DNA from: Candidatus Xenobia bacterium
GTDB lineage: Bacteria > Vulcanimicrobiota > Xenobia > Xenobiales > QWHO01
Assembly: GCA_045863235.1 (NCBI GenBank)
Contig: BTUM01000004.1
Span: 88,621-152,620, forward strand
Reading direction: 5' to 3'
DNA length: 64,000 nucleotides
The position numbers were made by a program, and so were the translations under genes. The notes under the pieces are model-generated. The model searched no databases, was not told the origin of the DNA, and worked only from the letters and a program-made list of their open reading frames with translations. This document shows, one piece after another, positions 6,416 through 62,372 of this stretch (position 1 is the stretch's first letter; the number at the start of each line of letters is the position of its first letter).

Positions 6416-6468
6416 AGCCGAGTCCGGCAGCGAGGGGAACTCCGCGAAGAAAGCAGAACCCCGCCGGG

Positions 6469-7122: not shown

Positions 7123-7182
7123 CACGCCCCAGGCGGGTTCTGGCTTAGAGTCGCCCCATCTCAGAGAGGACGACTCAGACCA

Positions 7183-7686: not shown

Positions 7687-7722
7687 GCTTTTTTTCAGTC
7701 CGGGGGGGCACACTCTGCGGGT

Positions 7723-18851: not shown

Positions 18852-19073
18852 GCAGTGAGAATACCGAGGGCTCCTCAAAGAAAGCTGACACTCACTCGTT
18901 GTGGCGGTCGGCGTCGGGGGCGAGCTTCGAACGACGGATCCCGCGGTGGATCCGAACGAGCGTTCGTTTACGCCGGAAAAATCTTCTTAAATTTATCGAC
19001 AAAATCGAATATACGTTTGCCAGGGAATTCAAGAAATTTAACGAACAGGCTCCAACGAAAGGAGTCAACTCTC

Positions 19074-27192: not shown

Positions 27193-27525
27193 TCAGTCAG
27201 CCAGGATCTTCTGCAACTCCCAGCGATCCAGCCACATGCCCCGGCAGGTGGGGCACACATCCACCTGGGTGGAGCGCCATTCCCACTCCTTCATGACGAC
27301 GTGGCAGCGTGGGCACTTGCGCTGGCCGGGGGGAACCGTCTTGCGCGAGTCATCGAAGGCCAGCGGTTGGAGAGCGTTCTTGGGCAGCGAGGCCAGAGTG
27401 ACCAGCAGCTCCGGCTCACCGTCGTCGAACCAGAGCCCGTCGCACAGCTCGCACTCGTCGAGTACCAGGTCGCCCAATCGAACCTCGCGCAGAGGCACCA
27501 GGCAGGTGGGGCACTCGATGTTCAT
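27193..27525 (-). CDS. Zinc-ribbon protein (TFIIB-type, COG3809-like), last gene of the flotillin operon
   Basis: MNIECPTCLVPL...CELCDGLWFD and a second ribbon CPRCHVVM...CPTCRGMW. Its start overlaps the stop of the giant ATPase gene (ATGA). Confidence 0.65.
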   Translation of the reverse strand: MNIECPTCLVPLREVRLGDLVLDECELCDGLWFDDGEPELLVTLASLPKNALQPLAFDDSRKTVPPGQRKCPRCHVVMKEWEWRSTQVDVCPTCRGMWLDRWELQKILAD

Positions 27526-33020: not shown

Positions 33021-33023
33021 CGA

Positions 33024-36972: not shown

Positions 36973-39369
36973 TCAGGAACGGCGGCGGAGGCGCACGCTG
37001 CCGACCTGGACCGCTCCCGGCTGCTCGACCACGGCTCCCCCCGGGCCGGTCGGAACCCCACCAAAACCTGCCAACACCTGCTGGCGGGCGGCCAGGGCGT
37101 CCATCCCGCCGTCCTGGAGGCCCTTCAGCTGGCGAAAGAGCTCCACAGCCTGGTCTTGCTTTTCGACCCCGACCAGGTCGAGCAAGTAACGGAAGTCCGC
37201 CATCCCTTCTCCGCGCGAGATCTGGTAGGCGGACAAAGCGGTCTCCAGAGTGGTGCCGCCTTGCTGGCAATCGAGCACCTGCCGCCAGGCCTCTTCGGGA
37301 GAGGTCACAAAGGCCGTCAGAACCGGGTGCACCTGGGCCACCCGGGTCATCGTGCGCAACTCGTCGAGCAACTCTCGCTCCCAGTCCGCAGCGTGGGCCC
37401 GATAGGCCTGCTCGAGAGGCTCGTGCGACAACCCTCCCGCGGTCGAAAGTCGGACGGCCACGGGGAGACACTCCGAGCGCTCAGCCGGGGGGGAGTCAGC
37501 TCGCCCGAACGGCTCGAGCTGCCGCTCGAGCAAGGCGACCCCCAGGTGGTCCCAGAGAAACTCGGCCGCCACTCGCTTTCCCAGGAGCAAGGCCAGGGCA
37601 TCGGGCGCCTGGGCGAGCATGGAGCGATCACGGCAGGCCTCAAAGAGCGCCTCCACCACTTCGGTGGCTTTCTCGGGAGTGAGCTGATCGCTCGGCGGCA
37701 GATTGGCCAGCAGAGCACGAGCCGAGACGGCGGCCTCAGGGTCGGGTCGATAGGCCTTCTGCCAGGCCATCATGGCCGCATCCGCCATCTGGTCGTCCAA
37801 TTCCAGGCCCTGCGACGACTCGAGCAGGCGGGCCACGACCGATCGCTGCTCGTGGCGGCCCAGGGACTGGAGCCTGGCTCCTTCCTGCTCGACGCAGGCC
37901 AGGGCCAGCCAACCCGCCGCCTGACGCGAGCGCGAAGAAAATGCCGCGGTGCCCACCTCGTGGAGCTTGTCGAGCAGGTCGGGGCCGCGCACACCCGGGC
38001 AGCGAAGCAGGGCGGCCAGCTCGTAGAGAGGCGTCAGGTCGTCGGTCACGGGGAGGCGACCCTTCAGCTGCTCGAGGTTCTCGCGCACTACAGGCTCGAG
38101 CTCGCTCACCCGCACCTGAAGAGCGTGGGGAGAGAGTGTGCTCAGCGAGCGCACCAGTGCATCCTCGGCTCCCCCCTGCACGTCCTGGAAAGGACCGCGC
38201 ATGTTGATGCCCAACCCGAACAGGTCGCGGCCGATGGCCAGGCGCTCGGCCATGGGGCCCTCGGCCCCGGCGAGCCGGGTCAGCAGGGCATCCCGCTGGG
38301 GCTCGCGCACCAGCTTGTCCACCTCGTTGCCGAGGTAGTTGCGCTCCTGAAAACGCTCGTTGGTCAAGAGGTCGACCAGCTTCTGCTTGTCGGGCGCCTC
38401 CAAAGGCAAGGAAATGAGCACCGACAGACGGGTGCGATCGACTTTGTCCATGGCCTGGCTGTGCCCGGCGCGAGCGTAGGCAGCCTCGGCGGCCTGCAAG
38501 AGGGCGGCAACCAGCGCCGGCTCCGGCCTGATCAGGCTGTAGTAGGTTTCCAGCCCGTTCCAGCTGCTCATGCCCTTCAGCAGGGCGGTCCGCTCGGAAT
38601 TGGGGTCAGGATCGTGGACCAGGCGGTCCACAAGGGCGGTGGAGAGCGAGACCATCCGGCCCCGGGTGTCGGGCAACTCCTCGCCGGCCAGAGCAGCACG
38701 GTCGGCCTTGCTCAACCCGGCCAGGAACTCGTGCAGGGGCTCGTCCTTGAACAAAGCCGCGGACTCGTCGCCCGGCGCAAAGGGCAGATAGAGCCGGGCC
38801 AACGGGTCGGGGCAGCTGGTTTCGGGCCGACCCAAAGCGAAGTTGGCCGCTCGCGCCACCAGGGGATCGTCTGACTGCGACCAGGCCACCAGAGGAGCCG
38901 CCTCCTCCTCCGAGAGCTGGCTGGCGCGATGGCGCTGCCCAAGCTCGACGAGTCGAGGCAGGATCTCACGGCGCTCAGCCTGACGCAGGCGTCGGGACCA
39001 GTCTTCGGGGGCCGAGGGGTCCTGAATTGCTCCCTCTTCGGACTGCAGCAGCGCTGGGGGAGCCGCGCTCGCGCTGGCCGCGGGCGCGCTCGGAGAGGGC
39101 GCGGCCTTCTCAGGCTTCTCCGCTTTCTGAGGAGCGCAAAGACGGGTCGAGTCGGCCGGTTCTGGAGGGTCGGGGGGCGATGCCGTCAAGGCGGCCGGGG
39201 GCGGCTGCGCGGTGGCTGGCAGGCCTGTGATTGTGACCCCCTGAATGATCATCGCCACTTGTTTCTGGGCGAGGGATTGCTGTCCCTCTGCTGGCTGCCT
39301 GCAACGCCAGGAAGGCGGCGTTGATCGCTTCCGCCAGAGACAAGCCGCCGGGCAGGAGCCCGCCCGCAA
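36973..39369 (-). CDS. Large hypothetical protein (about 760-798 aa)
   Basis: Long Leu/Ala-rich ORF with regular D/E/W content. A likely start is the ATG at 39252 (MIIQGVTITGLPATAQ...). It is divergent from the dihydropyrimidinase gene and has no recognisable domain. Confidence 0.45.
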   Translation of the reverse strand: MRAGSCPAACLWRKRSTPPSWRCRQPAEGQQSLAQKQVAMIIQGVTITGLPATAQPPPAALTASPPDPPEPADSTRLCAPQKAEKPEKAAPSPSAPAASASAAPPALLQSEEGAIQDPSAPEDWSRRLRQAERREILPRLVELGQRHRASQLSEEEAAPLVAWSQSDDPLVARAANFALGRPETSCPDPLARLYLPFAPGDESAALFKDEPLHEFLAGLSKADRAALAGEELPDTRGRMVSLSTALVDRLVHDPDPNSERTALLKGMSSWNGLETYYSLIRPEPALVAALLQAAEAAYARAGHSQAMDKVDRTRLSVLISLPLEAPDKQKLVDLLTNERFQERNYLGNEVDKLVREPQRDALLTRLAGAEGPMAERLAIGRDLFGLGINMRGPFQDVQGGAEDALVRSLSTLSPHALQVRVSELEPVVRENLEQLKGRLPVTDDLTPLYELAALLRCPGVRGPDLLDKLHEVGTAAFSSRSRQAAGWLALACVEQEGARLQSLGRHEQRSVVARLLESSQGLELDDQMADAAMMAWQKAYRPDPEAAVSARALLANLPPSDQLTPEKATEVVEALFEACRDRSMLAQAPDALALLLGKRVAAEFLWDHLGVALLERQLEPFGRADSPPAERSECLPVAVRLSTAGGLSHEPLEQAYRAHAADWERELLDELRTMTRVAQVHPVLTAFVTSPEEAWRQVLDCQQGGTTLETALSAYQISRGEGMADFRYLLDLVGVEKQDQAVELFRQLKGLQDGGMDALAARQQVLAGFGGVPTGPGGAVVEQPGAVQVGSVRLRRRS

Positions 39370-44781: not shown

Positions 44782-47376
44782 TCAGCGCTTCACGCGCACC
44801 ACGGTGACCCCCCAACCTCCCTCGTGCACCTCGCCCAGGCGGTGCTCGAGCACCATGGGGTGCCCTTTCAGGTGGCGCTGGATCGCCTGGCGCAAGGCGC
44901 CGGTTCCCTTGCCGTGGATCAGCTCCACCCTCTCGGCCCCGGCCATGGAGGCGCTGTCGAGGTAACGATCCACCTCCATCAGCGCCTCGTCCGCCGTCAA
45001 CCCGCGCAGGTCCAGCCGGGTGCTCAGGGTGGCCGCACGCGACTCGGGCAGGTGGCCCACCTGACCCTGACTCTTCGTCTCGACCGGATCGCACTCGTCG
45101 CGCGGCACGGTAATGCGCACCGCCCCCACGCGGACTTCCACCTTGTCGTCCTTGCTCGTGAGCACCGTGCCCTCCTGGCCGAAACGGCGCACGTAGACGG
45201 TGGTTCCCGGCTCCAGTGGACCGCCCTCGGCCGGGGTCGGCTTGATGCGCAGCGGAGCCAGCTCGCTGACCAGCGCGTTGAGCTCCATCTGCAGCGCTCG
45301 GGCGTCAGCCCTCACCTCTTCGTCCACCTCGTCGGGAGGCGGCAACTCAGGCCGCGGGGGCTCGGGAGTCTCGGTGCTGGTGGGCAGGTCCTCCTCCTCC
45401 CAGGGGGTCTCGGGGTCCTCGTGGGGGGCCACCCGGGCCCGCTCAGCGGCCACCTCGGCCACCAGCCTGGCGGCCTCGGCCGACAGCTCCTCCACATCGG
45501 TCGAATCGCTCACCAGCCGGGCGGCCAGCTCGCGAGCCAGCCTGCGTGACTCTTCCAGCGCCTCCTTGCGGGCCTGGCCCAGAGCGGCCAGCTTCTTGCG
45601 AAAGTCGGCCAGCAAGCCCTGCACGTTGTCGCGCGCTTCGCTGAGCAGCTTCTCGGCCTGGCGGGCGGCCTCGTCCAGCTTCTCCTTCTTCTCCTGCTCC
45701 ACCAGCGCCAGGCGCGCTTCGTACTCCTGGCGCAGGCGGGTCACCTGGCTCGACTCCTGCTCGAGCTGTTGGCCCAGCCTGTGGGCCGTCTCGCGCTCTT
45801 GCTCGAGGTCGTCGAGCAGCCCTTCCACCTCGTCGTGGCTCTGCCCCAAAAGCTCTCTCGCGCGGCGCAGCACGCTGGCCGGCAGGCCCAGCTGGCTTGC
45901 GATCTGAAGGGCGTTGGAGCGTCCCGGGACGCCCATCAGCACGCGGTAGGTGGGCTGCAGCGACCGGGTATCGAACTCGACGGCGGCGTTCTCCATCCCC
46001 TCGGTCTGGGCCGCGAAGGCCTTCAGCTCGGAGAGGTGGGTGGTCACGACGGTGCGCGTGCCGCGCCCGTGCAGGTACTCCAGCAAGGCCATCCCCAGCG
46101 CTCCGCCCTCGGAGGGGTCGGTGCCCGCCCCCAGCTCGTCGAGCAGCACCAGCGTCTCGGGTCCGGCCGCCGGGAGGATGCGCAGAATCTGGGTCAGGTG
46201 GGCCGAGAAAGTGGACAGGCTCTGGGCGATGGACTGCTCGTCGCCGATGTCGGCCCACACCGCTCGCAGAAACGGGATGCTCGAACCCGAGGCGCAGGGC
46301 ACCGGGCAACCTGACAGGCCCATCAGCACCGACAGGCCCACGCATTTGAGGGTGACCGTCTTGCCACCCGTGTTGGGGCCGGTGACCACCAGGGTATCGA
46401 ACCCCTGGCCCACCTCGATGGAGATGGGGATGACGTGCCCTCTGAGCAGGGGATGGCGGGCCTGGTTGAGCCGGATCGTGCCCTCCTGGTTGATCTCGGG
46501 CAGCTGGGCCCGGGCGTCCTGGGCGTAGCGCCCCAGCCCGCAGAGAAAGTCGAAGTGACCCAGCTCGTCGCAGGCCATGGCCAGCTCGTCGGCGTGGTAG
46601 CCCACCAGGGCCGACAGGCGGGCCAGGATGGCCTCCATCTCCTTCTTCTCGGCCAACCGCACCGAGCGCAGCTGGTTGCCCTGCTCCACCAGGGAGAATG
46701 GCTCCATGAAGAGGGTGGCGCCGCTGGCCGACTGGTCGATCACAAGTCCCGGAAAGGCGCTGCGATACTCCGACTTGACCGGCACCACGTGCCGCCCCAT
46801 GCGCTGGGTGATGATGGGCTCCTGCAGCATCTTGGCCAGGTCGCTCTCGCGCAAAATGGCGCCCAGGCTGCGCTGCATGCGCGCCTCCAGAGAGCGGATC
46901 TCCTCGCGCAGGGCTCGCAGCTTCGGGCTGGCCGAGTCGAGCATGCGGGCGTCGGGACCGAAGCAGCGGGCCACCTCGGACTCGATCTTGGGGAAGGGGA
47001 TCAGCACCACGCCCCGGTCAGCCAGGCGCGGAAAGCGGTCGGCCCGCTCTTTCAGGGCCCGCCCGACCTGCCGGCTCACTCCGGCCACCTCGCGGATCTG
47101 CATGAGCACCTCTGGCTCGAGGGAGGAGCCAAGCTGGGCCTGCTGGATGGCCGGGCGCACGTCCTCGAGCCCGCCCAGGGGGGGGTTGTAGCCCTCGTCG
47201 AGCAGCCGGATGGCCTCGGCCACGTCGTTCTGGCGCTCTTGCAGCTCGTCGAGCGAGGTGGCCGGCAACAGAGCCTCCATGCGCTCGCGCCCGGGCGGCC
47301 AGTGGGTCTTGCCCGCCAGGATCTCGAGCACGGCCGGGAACTCCAGCACGCGCAGGGTTTGCAGGTCTTGCAGCAT
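44782..47376 (-). CDS. mutS2: Endonuclease MutS2 (MutS domains plus C-terminal Smr)
   Basis: ATG at M216 of track ORF 44782..48021. The product starts MLQDLQTLRVLEFPAVLEILAG.... Walker A is GPNTGGKTVTLK and the ABC signature is ...LLDELGAGTDPSEG.... The charged KE-rich linker is followed by the Smr domain ...ERVELIHGKGTGALRQAIQRHL.... Confidence 0.85.
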   Translation of the reverse strand: MLQDLQTLRVLEFPAVLEILAGKTHWPPGRERMEALLPATSLDELQERQNDVAEAIRLLDEGYNPPLGGLEDVRPAIQQAQLGSSLEPEVLMQIREVAGVSRQVGRALKERADRFPRLADRGVVLIPFPKIESEVARCFGPDARMLDSASPKLRALREEIRSLEARMQRSLGAILRESDLAKMLQEPIITQRMGRHVVPVKSEYRSAFPGLVIDQSASGATLFMEPFSLVEQGNQLRSVRLAEKKEMEAILARLSALVGYHADELAMACDELGHFDFLCGLGRYAQDARAQLPEINQEGTIRLNQARHPLLRGHVIPISIEVGQGFDTLVVTGPNTGGKTVTLKCVGLSVLMGLSGCPVPCASGSSIPFLRAVWADIGDEQSIAQSLSTFSAHLTQILRILPAAGPETLVLLDELGAGTDPSEGGALGMALLEYLHGRGTRTVVTTHLSELKAFAAQTEGMENAAVEFDTRSLQPTYRVLMGVPGRSNALQIASQLGLPASVLRRARELLGQSHDEVEGLLDDLEQERETAHRLGQQLEQESSQVTRLRQEYEARLALVEQEKKEKLDEAARQAEKLLSEARDNVQGLLADFRKKLAALGQARKEALEESRRLARELAARLVSDSTDVEELSAEAARLVAEVAAERARVAPHEDPETPWEEEDLPTSTETPEPPRPELPPPDEVDEEVRADARALQMELNALVSELAPLRIKPTPAEGGPLEPGTTVYVRRFGQEGTVLTSKDDKVEVRVGAVRITVPRDECDPVETKSQGQVGHLPESRAATLSTRLDLRGLTADEALMEVDRYLDSASMAGAERVELIHGKGTGALRQAIQRHLKGHPMVLEHRLGEVHEGGWGVTVVRVKR

Positions 47377-47452
47377 CGCGCTCGGAGATTCTCGCCGGAG
47401 GGGTGGATTTCCGCCTGGCACGGCCAAGTCGAGAACGGAACTGGCGTTAGAG

Positions 47453-47494
47453 CGTTCTGTGAGGCTTTCACGGAGGCGAAACTCCTGCCGAACA
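47453..47494 (+). repeat. Copy A of a repeated ~42-nt intergenic motif (gcgttctgtgaNNNctttcacggaggcgaaactcctgccgaaca)
   Basis: gcgttctgtgaggctttcacggaggcgaaactcctgccgaaca lies about 50 nt upstream of the ATG at 47542. It is near-identical to the copy at about 61036-61079, and a partial copy ctttcacggaggcga is at about 49402-49416. Confidence 0.5.
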
Positions 47495-47541
47495 ACGAGG
47501 CGGTGAGGGAGGGACGTGCCCACCGGCGAACCAGACGATCG

Positions 47542-49395
47542 ATGCAGCTGCGAGAGAGAGCAAGGTGCGGCTATCCCGATGCGATGGCAGCCCTGGCCGA
47601 GGCCGGGGAGGACCTGAGCTTTCTTTCTGCCGAGCAGCGGGCCTATGGCTGGTGCCACACGTTCCACCCACGGTTGGCCGAGGAGCTGGTCGTGTGCCGG
47701 GCGACCCCGCACTGCCTGGTCGTGAGCTCGCTGAAGCTGGGTCAGCCCCTCGAGCTCGACTCTCGGCTCGCTCCTTCCTTCCTGGAGGCCAGCGCCTGCC
47801 CCGATCCAGAGGTCTCGGCCCGGGCCCTGGAGGCCCTGAAAGCCACCGACCTGGTCGACCTCCTGTGCGACTACGCGCTGTCGAGGGACTGCTCGCCGGC
47901 CGCCAGGGAGGTCTGGGTGGCTTTGGGCTTGCTTCCCAGCGCCCCCCATCGGCGCCAGATCTACCTGATCAGGATGGGAAGGACGGACCTTGCCGAGGAG
48001 CTCGATCCGCAGGGCGAGCACCTGACGCTGGGAGCCCTGGAGCTACGCCCCTCCTGGCGCCTGGCTCTGGCGGCCCATTTGCGCGAGCGCGGCCGGGGCC
48101 ACCTGGTACCCCGCATGCTGGGCATCGTCCGCGAGAGAGTGCAACTCGACGGGCCCATGCTGGCCGAGATGCTACGCCAGGCCCAGTTCGAGGCACTGTG
48201 GACTCTGTGCCCCTTCCTGTCTGCCGAGCGCGCCCGGGAGGTCATCCTGGGACTGGCCGAGAGGGGCTTCGCGGGGGGGGCTGACTTCGCGCAAGCCGTG
48301 GACCTGGCCCGGGTCGAGCCGATCCGGCGGCCTGTCTATCGCACGCGCGGGAAATGGGTGGGCTGGGGCGGGCGCCGCCTGCTGGTCAGCCGCAATCGGA
48401 GCGTGAGAGCCATCGATTGGGAGGAGGATCGCGTCGCCTGGCAGGTGGGAGGGAGTTGTCAGGGTGCGGTGCTCTCGCCGGACGGCAGGTGGGCCGCTCT
48501 TTCGCGCCAGCGGCACTACCATCTGCACGATCACGAGGGCCGAATGGTACACGCGAATCGAGCCGTGATGCCCAGTTTCTCGCCCTGCTCGAATTACTTC
48601 GCTTTTCGCGAGGGGCGCTGGCAGCTCTGGCGCCTCTCCCCGCTCGAGCTGCTCGAGTCATCCCAAAACTGCAAGTTCGAGTGGCTGGAGCCAGGCCAGG
48701 TGATCGTCAGCGAGGTGGGAGGACTGCGCATCCGCGATCTGGCCAGCGGGACCACCCGCCTGGAGCCGCCCCTGGCCAGTGAGCCGAACACCTCCAAGTG
48801 GAGGAGGTCTGCCCGGGGCGCGCGCTGGGTGGCCCGCCGAAACCCGCTGATGGCGTTGAGCACGGGCACCCCCGAAAGCCTGATCGTGGAATCGGACGGA
48901 AGCTGCCAGGTCGTGCCGAGCAGGGTCGTGCTGCTCGACGACGAGCGCGTGCTGTGCACCAAAGACTGGAAGATCTGGGACGGTCGCATGCTGCGGCCGC
49001 TCCCCAGGCCAGAGGCGGCTTCGTTTCAGATCGATCCCCGGGGGGCGCGACTCGTGACCGAGAAGGAAGGCTTCACCGCGCTGGTGCGCCTGGGCGACCG
49101 CCTGCCCTACCGAGAGCTGCCCGGCACTTTTCTCGCGATCCATCCCACCGAGCCTTACCTGGCAACTTTGCTTGAGGGAGAGATCTGCATCTGGCAGGTG
49201 CCCCACGAGGTCGACCTGGGTCCTGCGCTGCTCGAGGACAACGCCGAGCGACTCGAGCAACACCTGCGCCCACTGGCCCTCTTTCTCTTGCACCGACGAT
49301 TCCGCCACGAGGTGGCGCTGGAAGAGGGTCTGGAGCTCTCCCCAGCGCACGAAATCCAACTCGACGACGATGAGGCTCGCGTTTATGGAGGGTAA
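47542..49395 (+). CDS. Hypothetical protein with probable beta-propeller (WD40/PQQ-like) C-terminal region
   Basis: First in-frame ATG (MQLRERARCGYPDAMAALAEAG...) of track ORF 46435..49395. The upstream part of that ORF is antisense to mutS2. The C-terminal half has repeated W/G/S beta-strand-like segments (...VAWQVGGSCQGAVLSPDGRWAAL...). Confidence 0.5.
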   Translation: MQLRERARCGYPDAMAALAEAGEDLSFLSAEQRAYGWCHTFHPRLAEELVVCRATPHCLVVSSLKLGQPLELDSRLAPSFLEASACPDPEVSARALEALKATDLVDLLCDYALSRDCSPAAREVWVALGLLPSAPHRRQIYLIRMGRTDLAEELDPQGEHLTLGALELRPSWRLALAAHLRERGRGHLVPRMLGIVRERVQLDGPMLAEMLRQAQFEALWTLCPFLSAERAREVILGLAERGFAGGADFAQAVDLARVEPIRRPVYRTRGKWVGWGGRRLLVSRNRSVRAIDWEEDRVAWQVGGSCQGAVLSPDGRWAALSRQRHYHLHDHEGRMVHANRAVMPSFSPCSNYFAFREGRWQLWRLSPLELLESSQNCKFEWLEPGQVIVSEVGGLRIRDLASGTTRLEPPLASEPNTSKWRRSARGARWVARRNPLMALSTGTPESLIVESDGSCQVVPSRVVLLDDERVLCTKDWKIWDGRMLRPLPRPEAASFQIDPRGARLVTEKEGFTALVRLGDRLPYRELPGTFLAIHPTEPYLATLLEGEICIWQVPHEVDLGPALLEDNAERLEQHLRPLALFLLHRRFRHEVALEEGLELSPAHEIQLDDDEARVYGG

Positions 49396-49421
49396 CGCTC
49401 CCTTTCACGGAGGCGACGTGC

Positions 49422-52049
49422 TCAGGTCTGAGGATCAGCGACCTGGCCACCCTGAAGGCGCCGGTCGATCACGTGCCGCAGCTTGCCGCTGCGCGGGTTG
49501 CGCTCCAGCTCTCCCGGACTGACGACCTCTACCACCAGTTCGGCCAGCAAGCCCTGCTCGAGCCGCTCACCGAGCACAGGCAGGCGCTCGAGCAGCCTTT
49601 CTCGTACCCTCTCACTGGAGGCCGGGCCTTCCACCCGCACCCGCAGCCGATCGAGCAGGTCCCGCTTCTCGGCTACCAGTTGCACGGCGCCCGCCAGGCC
49701 GACCAGAGCTTCGGCCACGTCTTGCCAGGAAGTGTTGGTGCTGGCCAGGCAGAGCAGGTCGTCAGAGCGGCCAAGCAGCTCGAAGCGAGGAGTGGTCCGA
49801 CCGCAGGGGCAGGGCTCTTGCAGCCAGCGGGCTCGATCCCCCAATCGATAGCGAATCAGCGGCATCAACCGGCGCTGCAGGCAGGTGATCACGACCTCTC
49901 CCTCCGGGGCCGGTCTGCCTTGCGCGTCCAGTAGCTCCATCCACACCTGGTCGCTGGCCAGGTGGTGCACCGAGCCCGGGCAATGGGCGCACTGGTAGCC
50001 GATGGGTCCGCCGTCGTTGGCGCCCAGAATCGAGCCCAGCCGGGTCAATCCGAAGCGTTCGCGCAAGAGCTTCTGCTCGCCCGGGGGCAGGGGCTCGCCC
50101 CCGTAGACCACCGTCTTGATGGGGGGGCGAGCCTGGCGCTCGTGGAGGTCGGAGAACAGGCGGGTGAGCTGAGACGAGACCCCCAGCACCACCCCCACTT
50201 CGAAGCGCTCGAAGTGCAGCATCAGGCTCTCGAGGGGGGCCGAGGCGGTGAAGGGGAGGTTGACCACGCCGGCTTCCTCCAGCACTCGGTGGATGCTCAG
50301 GAAACTGCCGTAGAGGTCGCCCGAGAGGAAGAGGTTGGCGCAGCGGTCCCCCGGGCGAACGCCCAGGGCGCGCAGCATCTTGACGCCGGCCAGGACGTCG
50401 GCGCGATAGTCCTCCGGGCTCAAGAAGCAGTACTTGGGGTCGCCGGTGGAGCCGCCGCTGCGCAGCACCACGGCGTCCTTGAGAGGCGCGGTCAAGAGCT
50501 CGGCGGACTGAAGGTGCAGCACCGAGCGCTCCAGCAACGGCTGGCCCTGGAAGTCCTCCGGGAGGCAGACCGGGGTAAGGCGCTCGCGGTAGTAGGGCGA
50601 GCGAGCGCGCACGAACTCGATCAGGTCGAGCAGCCGCTCCCAGCTGATGGCCTCGGCCTCGGCGGCGGGGCGGGTCTCCCAGTCGTGGCTGATGCCCTCG
50701 GGGGCGTCGGCGGTCAAACTCACCCAGCGCACCAGGGGTTGCAGGCCGAGACGGCCGTCGTGGGGCTCGCCGGGCTGCCCCCCTGCCATCTCGCCGAGGC
50801 GGCAGATGCGGGTGGCTCCCGCCGCGGTCAGCAGCCGGCCCAGGTGGCGCGAGCGATAGAGCCCGGCCTCCAGGCCCACGGTCTGAAGGAAGCTGCGCCA
50901 GGGCTCGAGCAGAACCGGCAGCTCGCGCTCGGGTTGCTCCACCGTCTTGATGATCAGCGTGCGGTGCAAGGGCGAGGAGCGAAGCTCGCTCTCGTCGCTC
51001 TCGTAGATCAACGTCCAGGCCAGGGGACGCCTGGAGGTCAGCAGTCGCACCGGTCGCACGGCCTGGTCAAAAAGAGCCATCTGGCGCTCCTTGGTGACCT
51101 CGATGGCGGTATCGAAGGCGGGCTCGGCAGACGGCAGCTCGGCCTCCACCTCCTCCAGCGCCCGGGCCAGCGGCTCGAGCAGCCGCTCGGCGTTCTCGGC
51201 TCCCTCCACGTAGAGCACCTGGGGCGAGGAGCAGGCGTGTTGATCCCACATCGACACGTCGCGGGCCAGGCGGCCCGCCAGCTCGGGCAGATCCTGCCAG
51301 CCCGGGGCGTCGGCGGTGAGCACGGCCAGCGACAGCTTGGGCCCGTAATCCACCACCTCCACGTGGGGATCGACCCCCTGATGGTAGCGGCGCACGGCCT
51401 CCTCGCCCCCGGTGATGACGATGGCGTCACAGCCTGCTTTGAAGAGCGACTCCAGGCTCTCGTCGCCTCCCGACCAGGAGAGCACGGCGGTGGAGCGGGT
51501 CAGCTCGCCATCCTCTTCGAAGGCGGCCAGGCTCTCCACGAAGAGCCGGGCAAACAGCGGGTCACCGCTGGAGGCCTTCAGCAGAGTCACGTTGCCGGTC
51601 AGCAGAGACTCGGCCAGGAGGATGGCGGCGCCCACGAAGACATTGCCCGAGGCCACCGTCAGCACCACCCCGCGGGGACGAGCCCGCAGGTACTCCCCGA
51701 TGCTCTTGCGCGGAGTCCAACGATCGAGCAGGTCAGCCGGCCCCAACTCGCGCTCGATGCGCATCTCCAGGACGTCGCGTCGCAGGGCGTTCCCCATCAT
51801 CGTGAGGGATTGCGCCACCATGGGCCGGGACATGCCCACCAGGTCGGGGATCTCTTGCTCAGCCCGGCGTCGGGGGGGGAACTCGGGGTCGACCCAGGCA
51901 GCTCCGGCCCGATCCAGAATGCGCATGATGCGCCGCACCGAGATGCGCTCGTAGCTCAGGGTGCGCTCGCGAGCCCGGCCCAGCACCTCACGGACCCGCT
52001 CGGCGGTGAGCGGGCCGCTCCAGGTCTCCCCCAGCACGAAGTGGCTCAT
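49422..52049 (-). CDS. Fusion protein: LuxC-type acyl-CoA reductase (N-terminal) + PaaK/F390-synthetase-like adenylate-forming enzyme (C-terminal)
   Basis: ATG at M58 of the track ORF, overlapping the luxE-like stop (ATGA). The N-terminal half matches LuxC hallmarks (VVLTVASGNVFVGAAILLAESLLTGNVTLLKASSGDPLF ... AGCDAIVITGGEEAV; cf. LuxC HLLAGNVPLSG...IKTSSTDPF...DVIVAWGG). The C-terminal half has ...VVLRSGGSTGDPKYCF... and the CPCGR motif, paralogous to 58537..59814. Confidence 0.7.
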   Translation of the reverse strand: MSHFVLGETWSGPLTAERVREVLGRARERTLSYERISVRRIMRILDRAGAAWVDPEFPPRRRAEQEIPDLVGMSRPMVAQSLTMMGNALRRDVLEMRIERELGPADLLDRWTPRKSIGEYLRARPRGVVLTVASGNVFVGAAILLAESLLTGNVTLLKASSGDPLFARLFVESLAAFEEDGELTRSTAVLSWSGGDESLESLFKAGCDAIVITGGEEAVRRYHQGVDPHVEVVDYGPKLSLAVLTADAPGWQDLPELAGRLARDVSMWDQHACSSPQVLYVEGAENAERLLEPLARALEEVEAELPSAEPAFDTAIEVTKERQMALFDQAVRPVRLLTSRRPLAWTLIYESDESELRSSPLHRTLIIKTVEQPERELPVLLEPWRSFLQTVGLEAGLYRSRHLGRLLTAAGATRICRLGEMAGGQPGEPHDGRLGLQPLVRWVSLTADAPEGISHDWETRPAAEAEAISWERLLDLIEFVRARSPYYRERLTPVCLPEDFQGQPLLERSVLHLQSAELLTAPLKDAVVLRSGGSTGDPKYCFLSPEDYRADVLAGVKMLRALGVRPGDRCANLFLSGDLYGSFLSIHRVLEEAGVVNLPFTASAPLESLMLHFERFEVGVVLGVSSQLTRLFSDLHERQARPPIKTVVYGGEPLPPGEQKLLRERFGLTRLGSILGANDGGPIGYQCAHCPGSVHHLASDQVWMELLDAQGRPAPEGEVVITCLQRRLMPLIRYRLGDRARWLQEPCPCGRTTPRFELLGRSDDLLCLASTNTSWQDVAEALVGLAGAVQLVAEKRDLLDRLRVRVEGPASSERVRERLLERLPVLGERLEQGLLAELVVEVVSPGELERNPRSGKLRHVIDRRLQGGQVADPQT

Positions 52050-53131
52050 TCCAGCAGCCTCGCGGCCGCAATGGCGCAGCCGGCGTGCTTGCGCGTGCCG
52101 CCCCGGCCCAGAAAGCGAAGCGCAGGGGCCTGACGCCCGCACGGGCAACCCTCCTCCAGGGCCGCCAGGTCGCTGGTCAGCAGGCTGAGGTTGGGCACAC
52201 TGGTCAGAAACGGGGTGCACAGCTGCAACAGACCTGGCTCACCCGGAGCGAGCGGCCGAAGATCGAGGGGATGACGGATCAGCGCCCGGCAGAACACCGG
52301 AACATGGAAGCGGTGGGCCGGGCACTCGACGTAGGGGGCGCCGTGCTCGACCATGCCATAGTTGTCGCGCTGGCGCTCGGGGGGCACAGCCAGCTTCTGG
52401 CTGACCAGCTGGAGAAACTCCTCGCGAGGGATGGCCTGCTCGGCCTGGCCCTTCCAGCCCCCGCCGGTCAGCACCCAGCTGCCCTCAGCCAGCCTGACCG
52501 GGGCGTGCAGCCGCGTCATCAGACGGTGCAAGAAGGAGGGGAAGCCCACGATGCGCGTGGGGAACGGGCTTTGAGCCAGCCGCACCAGAGCCTCGAGCGC
52601 CCCTTCCTCGTCGAAGAAGAACCCCTCCGGGCCCTTTTGAAGGGCGTAGAACACCTCGGCCTGGCGGGTGAAACGGGTCCAGTTGGAGGAGCTGAAGGCC
52701 GCCCCCGAATCGGGAGCTTCAGCCGGGTCGTAGGAGAAAAGCAGCGAGTTGGTTGTCTCGTCGGGGGCCACCAGCCCCTGGTCGGCAAAGACCGTCTCGA
52801 GCATGGCCTGGGCCCGATCGAGCGAAGCCTGGTCGAAGAAAGTCTGGCTCTTTTGCCCCGAGGTCCCACTGGAGCGAACGTGCAGCACGACCTGGCTCTT
52901 CTCCACGCTGAGGAGCTCGTAGCGCTTGAACACGTTGACGAAGACGAAGGGGGCATCCTCCAGGCGCCCCAGGCGCTGAAAGCCCTGCTGCTCGCAAAAC
53001 CGGCCGAACTCGGGGCAGGAGCGGCGGTGGTGGGCAAACGCCTCCTGCATGGCCTCGTGAAAGAGCAGCTCGCGCTCATCGTCGAGGTCATAAGGGCGAT
53101 CAAGGCGACAGAGGCGGTCGATAGCTTGCAT
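52046..53131 (-). CDS. LuxE-like acyl-protein synthetase
   Basis: 361 aa. Adenylation motif VRSSGTSGQKSQTFF and a LuxE-type architecture. It lies immediately upstream of, and translationally coupled to, the LuxC fusion. Confidence 0.65.
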   Translation of the reverse strand: MQAIDRLCRLDRPYDLDDERELLFHEAMQEAFAHHRRSCPEFGRFCEQQGFQRLGRLEDAPFVFVNVFKRYELLSVEKSQVVLHVRSSGTSGQKSQTFFDQASLDRAQAMLETVFADQGLVAPDETTNSLLFSYDPAEAPDSGAAFSSSNWTRFTRQAEVFYALQKGPEGFFFDEEGALEALVRLAQSPFPTRIVGFPSFLHRLMTRLHAPVRLAEGSWVLTGGGWKGQAEQAIPREEFLQLVSQKLAVPPERQRDNYGMVEHGAPYVECPAHRFHVPVFCRALIRHPLDLRPLAPGEPGLLQLCTPFLTSVPNLSLLTSDLAALEEGCPCGRQAPALRFLGRGGTRKHAGCAIAAARLLE

Positions 53132-57146: not shown

Positions 57147-58540
57147 CCTCGCCGATCCTCCAGCACGAAATCGAGCAGCTCCTGGCCCCAGGGAGAGGCG
57201 ACCTGAATCAGATCGGCTCTCACAGGCTCTCCCAGTCGCTGCATCCGCAAGAGATCCCCCTGGCCGCCCAGCCCCGGGAAGAAGCCGCAGTATCCGAACC
57301 CTCGCTCGCGCAAGAGGTCGATCACCGTGTCGGTGTGGGGGTCGGCCAGCTCCAGGTCGACGAGTTGCACGGGAGCCTGAATCTCGTTGAGGCAGCGCCC
57401 CAGCTCGCGCGGGGTGTTGCGGCCCACCCGCTCGACGTGGAACAGAGCCCGGCGTGAGGCGGCCTGCAACCCCCAGGTCAGGGCTCCCTGGAGTGGAGGC
57501 CGGTTGGAGGCAGGCTCGTGCAGGCGACGCTGCAGGCCCAGCTTCTCCATGGTGCGGGTCAAAATGGCGGCGTAGCCTGGTGGAAGGTGCAGCCGGCTCT
57601 CCTTCTCGGGCGTCAGCGAGCGCACCGCGATCATCAGGCTGCTGGGCTCGGGATGGGTCTCCTCGGGCCCTACCGCCCCCAGCATCAGCGCGCTCTCGCA
57701 AAAGCCAAGATCGAGCACCACCTTCTGGGCGAAGAGGTGGCTGGTCACCGGATCGGCATAGAGCTTTCGCAACTGCCGCAGCCTGGCTTGCTCCACCAGG
57801 AAGCTGACCAGCTGGCGCAAGAGGCCCTGACCTCGGTAACGGGGCACCACCGCTCCCTGGCCCATTTCGTAGATGGGGCGATCGTCGAGCATGCGGACCA
57901 GGGCGGTATGGCCCACCACCTCCCCCGAGTCGGTCACGGCCACGGCCGAGATCAAGCGGCCCTGGCGGTTCATCTCGCGCACCCACTCGGGGCGGTAGAC
58001 GTTCTCATAGCCGGTATAGCTGTAACCATAGGCCTGGTAGAGACAGCGCGAGACTCCCACCGCCTCTTCGGGCTGCACCAGCCGCACGGTGACCGGCTCG
58101 AGTGGCTCCTCGGAGACTTTCTCTTGCTTGCGCACCCGGCTGCTGAAGCGAGCCTTGAGTCGCTTCACCAGGACGATCTCGTTGCCCTGACGACCCCGGT
58201 TGATGAGCCGCACCTCGTCCATCAGGGCCCGCATGATGACCAGCCCCAGCGTGCGCGGATCGGGTCCCGGCTCGAGGCGCGAAAGCTCGTCCGAGTCCAC
58301 CGGCAGATTGCGGTCGGTCAGGCGAATGCTGAGTCCATGCCCCCCCAGCTCGAACTTGATGGTGAAGGTCTGCTCGGGGTCGAGAGCGCGCTGCACCACG
58401 AAAGAGCATGCCTCGTCCACGGCCGCCCGGATGGCCTGGCTCTCGGCCGCGGCAAAGCCCGAGCGCTCGGCGAGCTCGGCTGCGAAGGCGGCTGCGGCGC
58501 CCACGTAGAGGGGATGGGAAGGAAGCTCGAGGCGGCTCAC
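57143..58540 (-). CDS. Two-domain protein: anti-sigma-factor-like histidine-kinase-type ATPase (RsbW-like) + GNAT acetyltransferase
   Basis: GTG start overlapping the PaaK-like stop (GTGA). The N-terminus shows an HATPase_c-like pattern (...CSFVVQRALDPEQTFTIKFELGGHGLSIRLTDRN...GLVIMRALMDEVRL). The C-terminus has the GNAT motif A (VVPRYRGQGLLRQLVSFLVEQAR). Confidence 0.5.
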   Translation of the reverse strand: MSRLELPSHPLYVGAAAAFAAELAERSGFAAAESQAIRAAVDEACSFVVQRALDPEQTFTIKFELGGHGLSIRLTDRNLPVDSDELSRLEPGPDPRTLGLVIMRALMDEVRLINRGRQGNEIVLVKRLKARFSSRVRKQEKVSEEPLEPVTVRLVQPEEAVGVSRCLYQAYGYSYTGYENVYRPEWVREMNRQGRLISAVAVTDSGEVVGHTALVRMLDDRPIYEMGQGAVVPRYRGQGLLRQLVSFLVEQARLRQLRKLYADPVTSHLFAQKVVLDLGFCESALMLGAVGPEETHPEPSSLMIAVRSLTPEKESRLHLPPGYAAILTRTMEKLGLQRRLHEPASNRPPLQGALTWGLQAASRRALFHVERVGRNTPRELGRCLNEIQAPVQLVDLELADPHTDTVIDLLRERGFGYCGFFPGLGGQGDLLRMQRLGEPVRADLIQVASPWGQELLDFVLEDRRG

Positions 58541-59814
58541 AGGCTCTCGTCTCGCACCCGGCGCAGCTTGCCGCTGTGAGCCCGACGCTCGAGCCGATCC
58601 ACGCGCTCCACCCGGACCGGGTGGGTATAGCCCTGGCGCACGTGCTCGGCCAGGTTGGGCTTGCGCTGCAAGAGCAAGGCCACCACCTGCTCTTCGCTCA
58701 CGGGCTGCTCCACCTGGATCAAGAGCAGATCCCGGCCCTCAGGGCGGCGCTTGATCATCGTGAAGCTGGCCACACCTCCCAGGGCCATCCGCACGTCTTC
58801 CCAGGTCACATTCTCGTAGCCGATGCGCAGCACGTCGTCGCCCCGCCCGAGCAGCTCGAATCGAGGCGAGGCCCGACCGCAGGGGCAGTCCCCGGCCACC
58901 CAGCGTCCCAGATCGCCTACCCGGTATCGAATGACCGGCATCAGCAACCGCTCGAGGTTGGTGACCACCAGGTGCCCGGTCACTCCCGGCTCGCGAATGG
59001 GCCGGTCCTCCTCGTCCACCAGCTCCACGATCACCACCCCACCCAGCGCGTGGTGCACCCCCCCCTGGCACGAGGGGCACTGATAGCCGATCATCCCCAC
59101 GTCCACGGCTCCGTAGCCGGCCGTGGCCACCACCTCCAGGCCCAGCCCATCCACCAGCTTCCGGCGATCTTCCGGGAAGAGGTGCTCGGCGGCATAAAAG
59201 AGCTTGTTGACGCGGGTTCGGCCGCTGGCCATCAAGGCCTCTCCCAGGGCCACCATCTGGGTGGCCAGGCCCATCACCACGTTGATGGAGAAGGGCTCGA
59301 GGCAGGCCAGCACCTGCTCACGGGGGGCGTGAAAGGTGAAGGGGAACGAGGTCGCTCCCACCTCCTCCAGACCGCGATGGATGGTCAAGAAACTGGCGTA
59401 GAGCTCGCCCACGGCGAACATGTTGGCGCAGCGGTCCTGGGGACGAAGCCCCGGAGCCCACAGCGTGCGGCCGGTACTGCGCGACAAACGCCGATAGTCG
59501 GCGTGGCTGTAAAGGCTGTACTTCGGTTTGCCGGTGGTGCCCCCGCTCTGGAAGACAACCGCGCGCTCCAGGGGACCGGTCAGCAGGGCTCGAGAGCGGG
59601 GCGGGCCGTGCTCCACCAGGTCCTGGCGGGTGAGGAAGGGCAGCTCCTCCAGGCGACCACTGAGGCGCTCGCGAAAGAAGCTCGCCCGCCGGGCTCGCTG
59701 CAAGAGCTGCCGAAGTCGCGCGGACTCCAGTGCCCCGAGCTGGTCAGCCGAAAGGCCATCCAGCTGATCGAAAGGATGCTCGACCCGGGAAGACATAGCC
59801 CGTAGCATACTCAC
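58537..59814 (-). CDS. Phenylacetate-CoA ligase (PaaK)/F390 synthetase-like adenylate-forming enzyme
   Basis: 425 aa. VVFQSGGTTGKPKYSLYS (P-loop-like AMP motif), ...YGAVDVGMIGYQCPSCQGGVHH... and CPCGRASPRFELLGRGDDV. It is clearly paralogous to the C-terminal half of 49422..52049. Confidence 0.75.
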   Translation of the reverse strand: MSMLRAMSSRVEHPFDQLDGLSADQLGALESARLRQLLQRARRASFFRERLSGRLEELPFLTRQDLVEHGPPRSRALLTGPLERAVVFQSGGTTGKPKYSLYSHADYRRLSRSTGRTLWAPGLRPQDRCANMFAVGELYASFLTIHRGLEEVGATSFPFTFHAPREQVLACLEPFSINVVMGLATQMVALGEALMASGRTRVNKLFYAAEHLFPEDRRKLVDGLGLEVVATAGYGAVDVGMIGYQCPSCQGGVHHALGGVVIVELVDEEDRPIREPGVTGHLVVTNLERLLMPVIRYRVGDLGRWVAGDCPCGRASPRFELLGRGDDVLRIGYENVTWEDVRMALGGVASFTMIKRRPEGRDLLLIQVEQPVSEEQVVALLLQRKPNLAEHVRQGYTHPVRVERVDRLERRAHSGKLRRVRDESL

Positions 59815-60938: not shown

Positions 60939-61035
60939 ACCTGGCCTCCTGGCAATCTGATGTTCGTTTCCGGGGAGCACGTTTTTCCGGCGGAAACGAA
61001 AACCTGCCGAACAAAGAAGAGAAAAGCCCACCAGG

Positions 61036-61079
61036 GCGTTCTGTGAAAACTTTCACGGAGGCGAAACTCCTGCCGAACA
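61036..61079 (+). repeat. Copy B of the repeated ~42-nt intergenic motif, containing TGTGA-N6-TCACg
   Basis: gcgttctgtgaaaactttcacggaggcgaaactcctgccgaaca. It is preceded at about 60975-61010 by a hairpin tcgtttccg...cggaaacga. It lies 15-45 nt upstream of the lipoprotein gene start. Confidence 0.5.
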
Positions 61080-61092
61080 CAAGGGGGCAGGA

Positions 61093-62364
61093 GTGTGCGT
61101 TCATGCCCGCGCAACCACCCGGATGAAAAACTTCCTCTTGACCTGCTCGATGCTGCTCGCGATGGGATGCAGCGGTTCCGAAACCCTGACCGGCGGCCCG
61201 CCCGTAGTGGACAACCTGCCGCCCCAGGCCCTCCTCCCGCCGGCCGCCCCGCTCACCCTGGAGAGCAGGCCCAACCTGGGCCGCATGCCGGTTATCGCGG
61301 AGCTGGGGGAGATTCCACCCGCTCCCTTGCCTCCCAATGCTCCACCGCCGGCGGGAGCCACCTTCACCCCGCTGGGCACTCTCCGTGGAGGCGATTCCGA
61401 GGCCTACGCCATCTCGGCCGATGGCTCAACGCTGACGGGGGCGTCCATCGACCCGGCCGGAAATCGGGACGCGTTCGTCTGGACCAGGGCTTCCGGGATG
61501 CAGGCGCTGCCGAACTCGCCGCGCAAGCCACAGAGCGAAGGCCACGCACTCAACAGCAATGGCAGCAAGGTCGGTGGCCTGGGAATCCTGTTCGACATCC
61601 TGGCGGCTCAGACATGGACCGACCAGGGCGTCTTCACGCTGCCGGGGTCGGTAGCACCCAACCTGCCGCCCCAGGTCGTTTCCGACCTCTCGCTCGACGG
61701 CACCGTGGCCGTGGGAACCGCGGGTACGGGCTTCCTCGGCTATCAAGGCTTTCGCTGGATCCAGGGGGCCCCGCAGCCGCACGGTCTGGGCACGCTGGGA
61801 GCCCCTCCCGGACAGCAGCCCGGCAGCGAGGGACACGGGAGTTCGGGCGACGGCTCCGTGATCACCGGCATTAGCACCAACAAAGCCGGCGGGCTTTCGG
61901 CCTACCGCTGGGTGGCGGGCACCATGTCGGCGCTTCCGACGCTCGGAAACCTCGCCTTTAGCGATGGCTGGGAGGTGTCCGCTGACGGCAGCAGTATCGT
62001 GGGCTGGAGCTCCAATCAGCCCAATCTCGTCCCCGCCCAGGCCACGCTCTGGAATGCCAGCGGGGCGGTCTCGCTGGGCACGCTCGCCGGCTTTGAGTTC
62101 AGCTCACAGGCCTACGGGGCCTCCTCCGATGGCTCGGTCGTCGTGGGCGCGGCCGCCAGTGGTCAGAATTTCCACTCCCAGGCCGCTTTCGTGTGGGACC
62201 AGGCCAACGGCATGCGGCGCCTGCAGGACCTGCTCGGCTCGGCGGTGCCCGCCGGGTGGAACTTGCTCGTCGCCACCGCCGTCTCAGACGACGGCCAGAC
62301 TGTGGCCGGCTTCGGGCTCAACCCGCAGGGCGCGGTGGAGGCCTTCAGCGCTCAGTTGCCCTGA
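61093..62364 (+). CDS. HAF-family extracellular repeat lipoprotein
   Basis: Lipoprotein signal MKNFLLTCSMLLAMGCSG (ATG at 61123; the track start GTG 61093 is also possible). Repeated units resemble the HAF repeat (...AYAISADGSTLTGAS...DAFVWTRASGMQALP..., ...AYGASSDGSVVVGAA...AAFVWDQANGMRRLQDL...). Confidence 0.65.
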   Translation: MCVHARATTRMKNFLLTCSMLLAMGCSGSETLTGGPPVVDNLPPQALLPPAAPLTLESRPNLGRMPVIAELGEIPPAPLPPNAPPPAGATFTPLGTLRGGDSEAYAISADGSTLTGASIDPAGNRDAFVWTRASGMQALPNSPRKPQSEGHALNSNGSKVGGLGILFDILAAQTWTDQGVFTLPGSVAPNLPPQVVSDLSLDGTVAVGTAGTGFLGYQGFRWIQGAPQPHGLGTLGAPPGQQPGSEGHGSSGDGSVITGISTNKAGGLSAYRWVAGTMSALPTLGNLAFSDGWEVSADGSSIVGWSSNQPNLVPAQATLWNASGAVSLGTLAGFEFSSQAYGASSDGSVVVGAAASGQNFHSQAAFVWDQANGMRRLQDLLGSAVPAGWNLLVATAVSDDGQTVAGFGLNPQGAVEAFSAQLP

Positions 62365-62372
62365 GCACTCGG

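Follow-up and report, generated by a model that had tools for sequence, protein, structure and literature searches.

A modular intergenic repeat with two near-invariant direct-repeat boxes in Candidatus Xenobia

We analysed a 64-kb stretch of the genome of a Candidatus Xenobia bacterium (contig BTUM01000004.1; hereafter the window, with a G+C content of 66.7%), in which the initial annotation had drawn attention to a repeated intergenic motif of about 42 nt and had offered three readings of it: a shared operator, an RNA element of the 5' untranslated region (UTR), or a short repeat akin to repetitive extragenic palindromes (REP) and miniature inverted-repeat transposable elements (MITE). The motif, 43 nt long in copy A, is only the 3' module of a modular element of approximately 115 nt. 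This element is a discrete, non-coding unit with a sharp 3' boundary after the tetranucleotide GAAC, it is found exclusively between genes, and it carries two near-invariant boxes arranged as direct repeats. It is a new repeat family belonging to a familiar class of genomic repeats. The last of the three readings fits best, given a dispersed intergenic family at about eight loci in related genomes, and we consider it probable (roughly 0.6) that the family is an interspersed repeat of the REP/BOX/MITE class, low in copy number and restricted to one lineage, and not a gene-specific regulator. Candidatus Xenobia (Eremiobacterota) is known from few if any cultured representatives.

Architecture of the element and its copies in the window

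The motif occupies positions 47452-47494 in copy A (43 nt) and 61036-61079 in copy B (44 nt, with a loop one nucleotide longer). Both share an identical 30-mer, CTTTCACGGAGGCGAAACTCCTGCCGAACA (47465-47494 and 61050-61079), which occurs exactly twice in the window and not once in 100 shuffles of it. Its 15-nt core, CTTTCACGGAGGCGA, is found a third time in the 26-nt gap that separates the convergent stop codons of the open reading frames (ORFs) 47542..49395 (+) and 49422..52220 (-); when up to two mismatches are allowed, the 15-mer has three matches in the window against 0.27 expected. All three copies and fragments point in the same direction. The repetition is therefore real, and the distances to start codons given in the initial annotation hold as well: 47 nt lie between the end of copy A and the ATG at 47542, whereas the end of copy B is separated by 13 nt from the GTG at 61093 and by 43 nt from the ATG at 61123. 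Furthermore, the TGTGA-N6-TCAC site reported for copy B was recovered, with a spacing of N5 in the truncated copy A, and the string GGAG-N6-CTCC is present in both copies.

Copy B is a complete element that matches the family covariance model over model positions 1-119 with 115.5 bits (E 4.9e-35), scores 101.9 bits in an nhmmer profile search and aligns end to end with 13 other copies. Copy A is 5'-truncated and scores 46.3 bits by nhmmer (model positions 59-118) and 44.7 bits with the covariance model; it is without the 52-57 nt or so that hold the palindrome P1 and Box1, which the orthologous loci L005 and L020 keep. With filters switched off, the covariance model found no match in the whole 64 kb beyond copies A and B, and the 15-nt relic was not significant by profile search (E 6.8). 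The coordinates are collected in Table 1.

Table 1. Parts of the repeat family in the window, with the two annotated neighbouring genes
Feature	Position	Strand	Basis or remark
Copy B, complete element, ~115 nt	60962..61079 (to 61080 by covariance model)	+	covariance model, nhmmer, alignment
Copy B, degenerate Box0/P0, GGCAATC TGAT GTTCG (consensus GGCGAAC-N4-GTTCG)	60951..60966	+	alignment with flanks
Copy B, hairpin P1, CGTTTTT-CCGGC-GGAAACG	60980..60998	+	family form TTCGTTTCC-loop-GGAAACGAA, 4-9 bp
Copy B, Box1 CGAAAACCTGCCGAACA	60997..61013	+	near-invariant in 14 full copies; sole occurrence in the window
Copy B, variable purine-rich linker	61014..61038	+	unalignable across subfamilies
Copy B, P2, TTCTGTGAA-AACT-TTCACGGAG	61039..61060	+	holds TGTGA-N6-TCAC; core invariant in 14/14
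Copy B, Box2 CGAAACTCCTGCCGAAC	61062..61078	+	three substitutions over 14 full copies
Copy A, truncated element	47437..47494	+	orthologs L005 and L020 full-length
Copy A, Box0 remnant GGAACTGGC	47437-47445	+	deletion junction 47445/47446
Copy A, P2	47455-47475	+	
Copy A, Box2	47477-47493	+	
15-nt relic CTTTCACGGAGGCGA (P2 3' arm and start of Box2)	49402..49416	+	exact 15-mer
mutS2, divergent left neighbour of copy A (context only)	44782..47376	-	TIGR01069, E 8.4e-249
HAF-repeat lipoprotein gene, right neighbour of copy B (context only)	61093..62364	+	TIGR02913 HAF_rpt, E 1.1e-14

Read from 5' to 3', the full unit consists of a weak GGCGAAC-N4-GTTCG module, the palindrome P1, Box1 (CGAAAACCTGCCGAACA), a linker, the sequence CGTCAAATCGATC, the palindrome P2 and Box2 (CGAAACTCCTGCCGAAC). 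P1 has the form TTTCC-loop-GGAAA, can be extended to 9 bp as TTCGTTTCC...GGAAACGAA and has a loop of 3, 4 or 5 nt depending on the copy; at locus L023, CTTC..GAAG replaces TTTC..GAAA. P2 has the form GTGAA-N4-TTCAC and can likewise be extended to 9 bp if G.T pairs (T.G on the + strand) are used. Its core, GTGA-N6-TCAC, is invariant and of fixed spacing in each of the 14 full copies, with four variable nucleotides at the centre. Box1 is near-invariant in the same copies (C36-A52 of the first sequence in the alignment), and Box2 shows just three substitutions across them (in L012, L043 and L005). Similarity between copies stops right after GAAC, the next base being A, G or C. GAAC terminates 14 of 14 copies, and a GAAC-like box, often degenerate, stands ahead of P1 in about 9-10 of them; the GGCGAAC-N4-GTTCG module to which it belongs is visible in most copies and is conserved far less than Box1 and Box2. 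The purine-rich linker measures about 20 nt and differs in length by 1-2 nt among copies, and because such differences disrupt all frames, the encoding of a small peptide was excluded.

The two halves of the unit are related to each other. In copy B, CGGCGGAAACGAAAACCTGCCGAACA (60988-61013) repeats the Box2 module in direct orientation and diverged form, with CTGCCGAACA recurring at 61004-61013, and in general Box1 and Box2, each taken with its preceding hairpin, are diverged direct repeats of a single module of about 30 nt; the two modules are about 77% alike and lie about 66 nt apart, start to start. The ends of the element are direct as well (…GGCGAAC and …CTGCCGAAC), so that terminal inverted repeats are absent from the alignment of the copies, and the left end bears only a weak, gapped resemblance to the reverse complement of the right end. 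No target-site duplication was seen on inspection of the flanks of the 14 copies, whichever of the two possible left boundaries was chosen.

Carriers, gene context and behaviour at orthologous loci

When species-representative genomes were scanned with a 19-mer taken from the motif, six loci were returned. Three are true members that share the 43-mer and the upstream block, namely L003 and L005 (both from the Eremiobacterota metagenome-assembled genome KLAP168) and L006 (from a metagenome-assembled genome labelled Burkholderiales), and three are chance matches in coding DNA. A metagenome scan anchored on both boxes returned 41 loci with 13 true members. In total, 14 full copies were recovered from about eight distinct loci. 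The proteins that flank them are 88-97% identical between loci or to proteins of the window; hence all copies come from one narrow clade of Candidatus Xenobia (Eremiobacterota), to which the family is confined. MutS2 of the window is 100% identical to a protein of the Candidatus Xenobia metagenome-assembled genome AMXMBFR33. In three relatives whose MutS2 is 84%, 80% and 57% identical, no element was found upstream of mutS2 or anywhere in the 14.6, 5.7 and 8.8 kb read, respectively. Beyond the two copies in the window, about 140 kb of flanking sequence from the clade held no extra full copy; a weak covariance-model match at L039/L013 (12 bits) lies in coding sequence and was discarded. Viral contigs scanned with both boxes gave chance matches only, and a BLAST search of plasmids gave none. 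The 64-kb window has no match in Rfam 15 at the gathering score; at E values up to 10, chance-level matches appeared around copy B (E at least 0.8) and none around copy A. A literature search on the box sequences retrieved unrelated primers only. Measured against the refuting conditions named in the initial annotation, the outcome is mixed: the family is not present in hundreds of copies and does occur outside the strain, and its orientation relative to genes is effectively random.

The element at L006 (CAYYHB010000035.1, "uncultured Burkholderiales") and the one at L038 (JAANMU010000318.1) are identical, immediate flanks included, and obtain the same model score. Since all other carriers are Xenobia, the L006 contig or bin may be misclassified.

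Every copy is intergenic, in one or the other orientation relative to its neighbours. Copies were found upstream of mutS2 (copy A, L005/L020 and L043), upstream of glnS (L003/L011 and L023), upstream of a HAD phosphatase gene (L007, L022 and L030), between a C39 peptidase gene and the HAF gene (copy B and L013), at a YbaK-like tRNA-editing gene (L014 and L033), at the gene for a PEP-utilising enzyme (L012), at an HD-domain gene (L039) and between a convergent pair of unknown genes (L006/L038); these genes have no function in common. The intergenic region that holds copy A is bounded by the divergent mutS2 (-, ATG at 47376) and ORF 47542..49395, for which Pfam and NCBIfam gave no match, leaving its earlier label of a beta-propeller protein unconfirmed. 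Copy B is flanked on the left by a C39-like peptidase gene (stop at 60938) and on the right by the HAF-repeat lipoprotein gene, which starts at GTG 61093 or ATG 61123. With the element taken as the + strand, the right-hand neighbour presents a co-oriented start in four of nine locus arrangements and a convergent 3' end in five; on the left, five arrangements show a divergent start and three a co-oriented 3' end. Start codons lie between 13 and about 290 nt away. The 117-nt gap between the convergent genes of L006 is taken up by the element, which begins 3 nt past one stop and ends 16 nt ahead of the other, and at the HAD locus the direction of the element in L030 is opposite to that in L007 and L022, upstream of the same gene. 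The convergent 3' ends, the gap between stop codons and the inversion at the HAD locus argue against a shared operator as well as against a 5'-UTR role common to the whole family.

Orthologous loci share more than 88% identity in their coding flanks and retain near-identical boxes, even though the intergenic DNA that surrounds the element is often unalignable. Synteny shifts directly beside the element at least at the mutS2 and HAF/HD-gene loci. L043 and L005 have mutS2 in common on the left and different genes on the right. L039 has no HAF gene; the HD gene, which in the window comes after HAF, is there separated by about 165 nt from an element with a different left flank. Between the window and L005/L020, synteny holds up to 49365-49371 and so breaks off 31-37 nt short of the 15-nt relic. 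At L023, a second, truncated copy follows 33 nt past the first. Truncated, tandem-partial and inverted variants occur, and several of them adjoin local rearrangements. Other indels between the window and its relatives do not adjoin elements, so that the association of elements with rearrangement is suggestive and not exclusive. The comparisons gave no support to an island flanked by direct repeats in the 13.6 kb between copies A and B. Two internal deletions were also seen in the genes to the right of the window copies: about 1.2 kb of ORF 47542..49395 is missing in L005/L020 (window 47680-48876), and about 1.1 kb of the HAF gene is missing in L013 (window 61280-62369).

Probably a repeat rather than a regulator

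The near-invariance of the two boxes suggests that they are retained because a sequence-specific factor must recognise them. The most likely factor would be a strand-specific DNA-processing enzyme of the kind that mobilises elements without terminal inverted repeats, similar to those of IS200/IS605, of IS91 or of the RAYT type. Such an enzyme is favoured by the lack of terminal inverted repeats and target duplications, by the same-direction modules of a hairpin with a GAAC-ending box, by the GAAC-like box that precedes most copies and by the G.T pairs tolerated on one strand (about 13 in the hairpin arms of the + strand, against about four A.C mismatches). The family would accordingly represent a non-autonomous element that is or was mobile, and any effects on ORF 47542..49395 and the HAF gene would be incidental to where the two copies happen to sit. 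The particular enzyme class, HUH-type or other, is doubtful. Going one step further, the element might serve as substrate in a strand-specific DNA transaction of an as yet undescribed kind in Xenobia, in which each "hairpin plus 17-nt box ending in GAAC" would be cut by an HUH-type or other enzyme independent of inverted repeats; the family would then define a class of miniature elements with neither terminal inverted repeats nor duplications, or else a set of domesticated sites that seed rearrangement and gene turnover. The synteny breaks at mutS2, the variable HAF and "beta-propeller" genes, the inverted HAD copy and the relic close to a breakpoint point in this direction, and we nevertheless regard so specific a proposal as unlikely.

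Several observations weigh against an interspersed mobile repeat. Searches of about 40 ORFs from the window and the other loci with Pfam and NCBIfam identified no transposase, recombinase or integrase, either beside any copy or elsewhere in the 64 kb. No autonomous parent element was seen in about 220 kb examined, some 205 kb of it from the clade, and no empty site with precise boundaries was recovered, so that mobility is something we infer. A degenerate left-hand GAAC box, or none at all, is seen in 4-5 copies. Given the low copy number (about eight loci) and the retention at orthologous loci, a host-selected function fits as well as a selfish element does. The HUH-type mechanism is proposed from the architecture of the element and from the biology of IS91 and IS200/IS605.

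Conserved hairpin-capable palindromes could also belong to a structured RNA module, either a small RNA (sRNA) family or a UTR element of the + strand, in which P1 and P2 would expose the boxes as single strands for an RNA-binding protein or a trans target and Box2 would mask the ribosome-binding region of the HAF gene. The conservation of P1 and P2 with loops that vary in sequence, and in P1 also in length, is consistent with this, as are the T.G pairs of the P2 extension, which are tolerated on the + strand only, and the elements at L006, L014 and L033, which lie downstream of a co-oriented gene and thus in a potential 3' UTR. We consider such a module unlikely on account of the structural tests. 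No base pair changed on both sides among the copies, and the covariation score was reached by 398 of 500 shuffles; the RNAalifold consensus amounts to -6.9 kcal/mol. When the 14 copies were folded on both strands, the mean z score was about -1.1 with no strand asymmetry. In single-sequence folds, copy A had z = 0.05 and copy B had z = -2.5, the latter from a copy-specific pairing with downstream sequence: Box2 contains ACTCCTGCC (61066-61074), which in copy B only is perfectly complementary to GGCAGGAGT (61087-61095), overlapping the GTG at 61093, and RNAfold predicts a 9-bp stem between them. In the ortholog L013 the sequence GGCAGGTGT introduces one mismatch and weakens the pairing. It could represent a local exaptation in which the ribosome-binding region of the HAF gene is masked.

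The position of the copies and the signals around them likewise disagree with an RNA module. A co-oriented start lies downstream in only four of nine locus arrangements, and the upstream flanks of orthologous copies are unalignable. Scans around both copies identified neither sigma-70 promoter-like hexamers nor intrinsic terminators, no promoter is conserved upstream of the family, and Rfam has no match; an independent sRNA gene was rejected on the missing promoter- and terminator-like sites and the unalignable flanks. The absence of terminators is meaningful since standard terminators do occur in the clade: upstream of the HAD gene in L007/L022, the preceding gene is closed by a canonical intrinsic terminator, GACGGCTCGCGCG-loop-CGCGAGCCGTC followed by TTTCTTTT. 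The small stem-loop that the initial annotation drew from GGAG-N6-CTCC did not survive the comparison, although the string itself is there. GGAG becomes GAGA, GGAA, AGAG or AAAG in other copies while CTCC stays fixed, and three of the four pairs of the hairpin depart solely via broken pairs, with no sign of covariation. GGAG is better read as a 3' extension of the predicted P2 stem (GTGAA/TTCAC).

Since the core of P2 is invariant and its centre varies, a hairpin and a CRP-type site are equally possible for this palindrome. The element could be a portable regulatory DNA module, with P2 as an operator for a protein of the CRP/FNR family, the boxes as binding sites of a second factor and the neighbouring genes under common control. 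The fixed spacing of GTGA-N6-TCAC in 14 of 14 copies and the variable central four nucleotides are as would be expected for a site bound by a dimer, and at least one perfect half-site, TGTGA or TCACA, is present in 12 of them; moreover, a divergent start lies 55-290 nt leftward at five loci and a co-oriented start rightward at four. The genes that would be co-regulated share no function, however (MutS2, GlnRS, HAD phosphatase, tRNA-editing protein, PEP-utilising enzyme and HAF lipoprotein), and L006/L038 has no gene start on either side. Start codons lie at distances from 13 to about 290 nt, with no -35/-10 hexamers at class I or class II distances (e.g. -41.5 or -61.5). P1 fits a dimeric DNA-binding site poorly because its loop length, and thereby its half-site spacing, varies in a way that a dimeric binder would not tolerate, and the next relatives carry no copy at these loci. 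Taken with the convergent right-hand neighbours and the inverted HAD copy, these observations make a common operator quite improbable. Other regulatory sites were discarded. By eye, the reverse strand of Box2 agrees with a sigma-54 promoter at about 11 of 14 positions, but Box1 shows no such agreement and the contexts of the genes are discordant. Promoters of the extracytoplasmic function (ECF) type and the class I/II geometry of CRP sites were considered in the same way, and none of the three was consistent across copies. A LexA/Cheo-box reading of GAAC-N4-GTTC in the left module is perfect in only two copies.

It is highly improbable that the element is a host chromosomal site for a maintenance protein, such as a Ter-like polar fork barrier or a site for a nucleoid or segregation protein, with about ten oriented copies per genome. 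A low copy number, boxes far more conserved than their surroundings, retention at orthologous loci and the common direction of the three window copies and fragments would suit such a site, but close relatives carry the element in opposite orientations at the HAD locus, truncated and tandem-partial forms are tolerated, and the GC-skew profile of the window gives no signal that would tie orientation to replication. P1 resembles parS and Noc sites only loosely and was rejected as such a site because its half-site spacing varies by 0-2 nt, and a composite site of this form of about 115 nt has no known precedent. Resemblances to the end-binding sites of Tn3, Mu and Tn7 were rejected or left as chance.

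As it stands, the finding is descriptive and of modest weight: it adds one family to an ordinary class of genomic features, with no prior description found in Rfam or in the sequence-based literature search. A defined repeat family provides a marker for strain typing and for checks of assembly and binning, and it flags intergenic regions that should not be taken for promoters or riboswitches. If the boxes turn out to be recognition sites of an enzyme, they would offer a handle on an unusual system of mobilisation or recombination that works without terminal inverted repeats.

Other features of the window and comparison with known systems

The window holds further features. ORF 18855-20468 (+), in a stretch of lower G+C content (0.63) that is not near any copy of the element, encodes a C-terminal HNH nuclease motif and weakly matches the HNH portion of the IscB model (E 5.5e-6, well short of the cut-off). 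Tandem periodic repeats of about 45-140 nt in a coding region at 26050-26800 (repeat families D1 and D4) encode coiled-coil-like ELA-ARARIEELE sequence. ORF 27522-33023 (-) encodes 1833 aa with DUF3686 ("ATPase involved in DNA repair", E 4e-191), DUF7902 and a second AAA domain, and the two ORFs after it have no Pfam match. The genes at 49422-53131 (-) and 58537-59814 (-) encode a LuxC-like acyl-CoA reductase fused to an AMP-binding domain, a LuxE-like acyl-protein synthetase and a second AMP-binding enzyme; positions 49753-49892 (140 nt) are 72% identical to 58829-58968, and the two therefore represent paralogous domains. Furthermore, the otherwise unannotated proteins encoded at 36973-39369 (-) of the window and at 5724-7793 (-) of L043 share a similar C-terminal motif, ...V(Q/T)VG(S/G)VRLR(R/S)RS, and the protein of L012 225-1508 (-) ends in the kindred ...GGVRVKRKGQ; the shared motif may be a sorting or secretion tag. 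The window protein is encoded within 2.4 kb that could not be aligned with L020.

Among known repeats, the BOX elements of Streptococcus pneumoniae (boxA-boxB-boxC) are like the Xenobia family in being non-coding, modular units of about 100-150 nt that are intergenic in either orientation, hairpin-capable, lineage-restricted and found in partial and rearranged copies. BOX elements occur in more than 100 copies, and boxA and boxC act as terminal inverted repeats; the family has about eight loci and direct modules, and no sequence similarity to BOX. The REP, BIME and REPIN elements associated with RAYT (Y1 HUH) proteins are also extragenic, hairpin-forming and retained at orthologous positions, with no target duplications and with single-strand stems that tolerate G.T pairs. 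Their units differ from the family in measuring 20-40 nt, in usually forming inverted pairs, in bearing a GTAG-type tetranucleotide and in reaching tens to hundreds of copies; a RAYT gene was not found in the sequence examined. MITEs, such as the Correia elements of Neisseria, are likewise short, non-autonomous and intergenic, sometimes stand beside gene starts, are associated with local structural variation and can alter expression. The family has the MITE traits of being short, dispersed and non-coding and is without their terminal inverted repeats and target-site duplications.

Integron attC sites are comparable as species-specific repeats of about 60-140 nt that lie beside variable genes and fold as single strands, but the RYYYAAC/GTTRRRY core is absent from the family, the box GCCGAAC having a purine at position 4. 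An attC reading was rejected since there is no overall imperfect palindrome, cassette array or integrase, and since the two window copies lie 13.6 kb apart with genes of both orientations between them. A CRISPR array was rejected as well: there are two modules only, the "spacer" is conserved from locus to locus and base-pairs with the second module, and no cas genes were found. With respect to CRP/FNR sites (TGTGA-N6-TCACA), P2 matches 8-10 of the 10 consensus positions at the exact spacing in every full copy; unlike such sites, it is embedded in a larger repeat that is placed inconsistently with regard to promoters and starts and that also occurs between convergent genes.

Insertion sequences of the IS200/IS605 and IS91 types resemble the family in that they have neither inverted terminal repeats nor target duplications and carry subterminal hairpins in the same orientation. 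They also have a short fixed sequence at the cleavage boundary, for which the GAAC end of the family, usually preceded by a GAAC-like box that is often degenerate, would be a candidate counterpart. A Y1 or Y2 HUH transposase was not among the roughly 40 ORFs scanned in the window and the loci. IS608 has near-identical hairpins at its ends, whereas the two hairpins of the family differ (TTTCC/GGAAA and GTGAA/TTCAC). IS91 is reported to use GAAC/CAAG.

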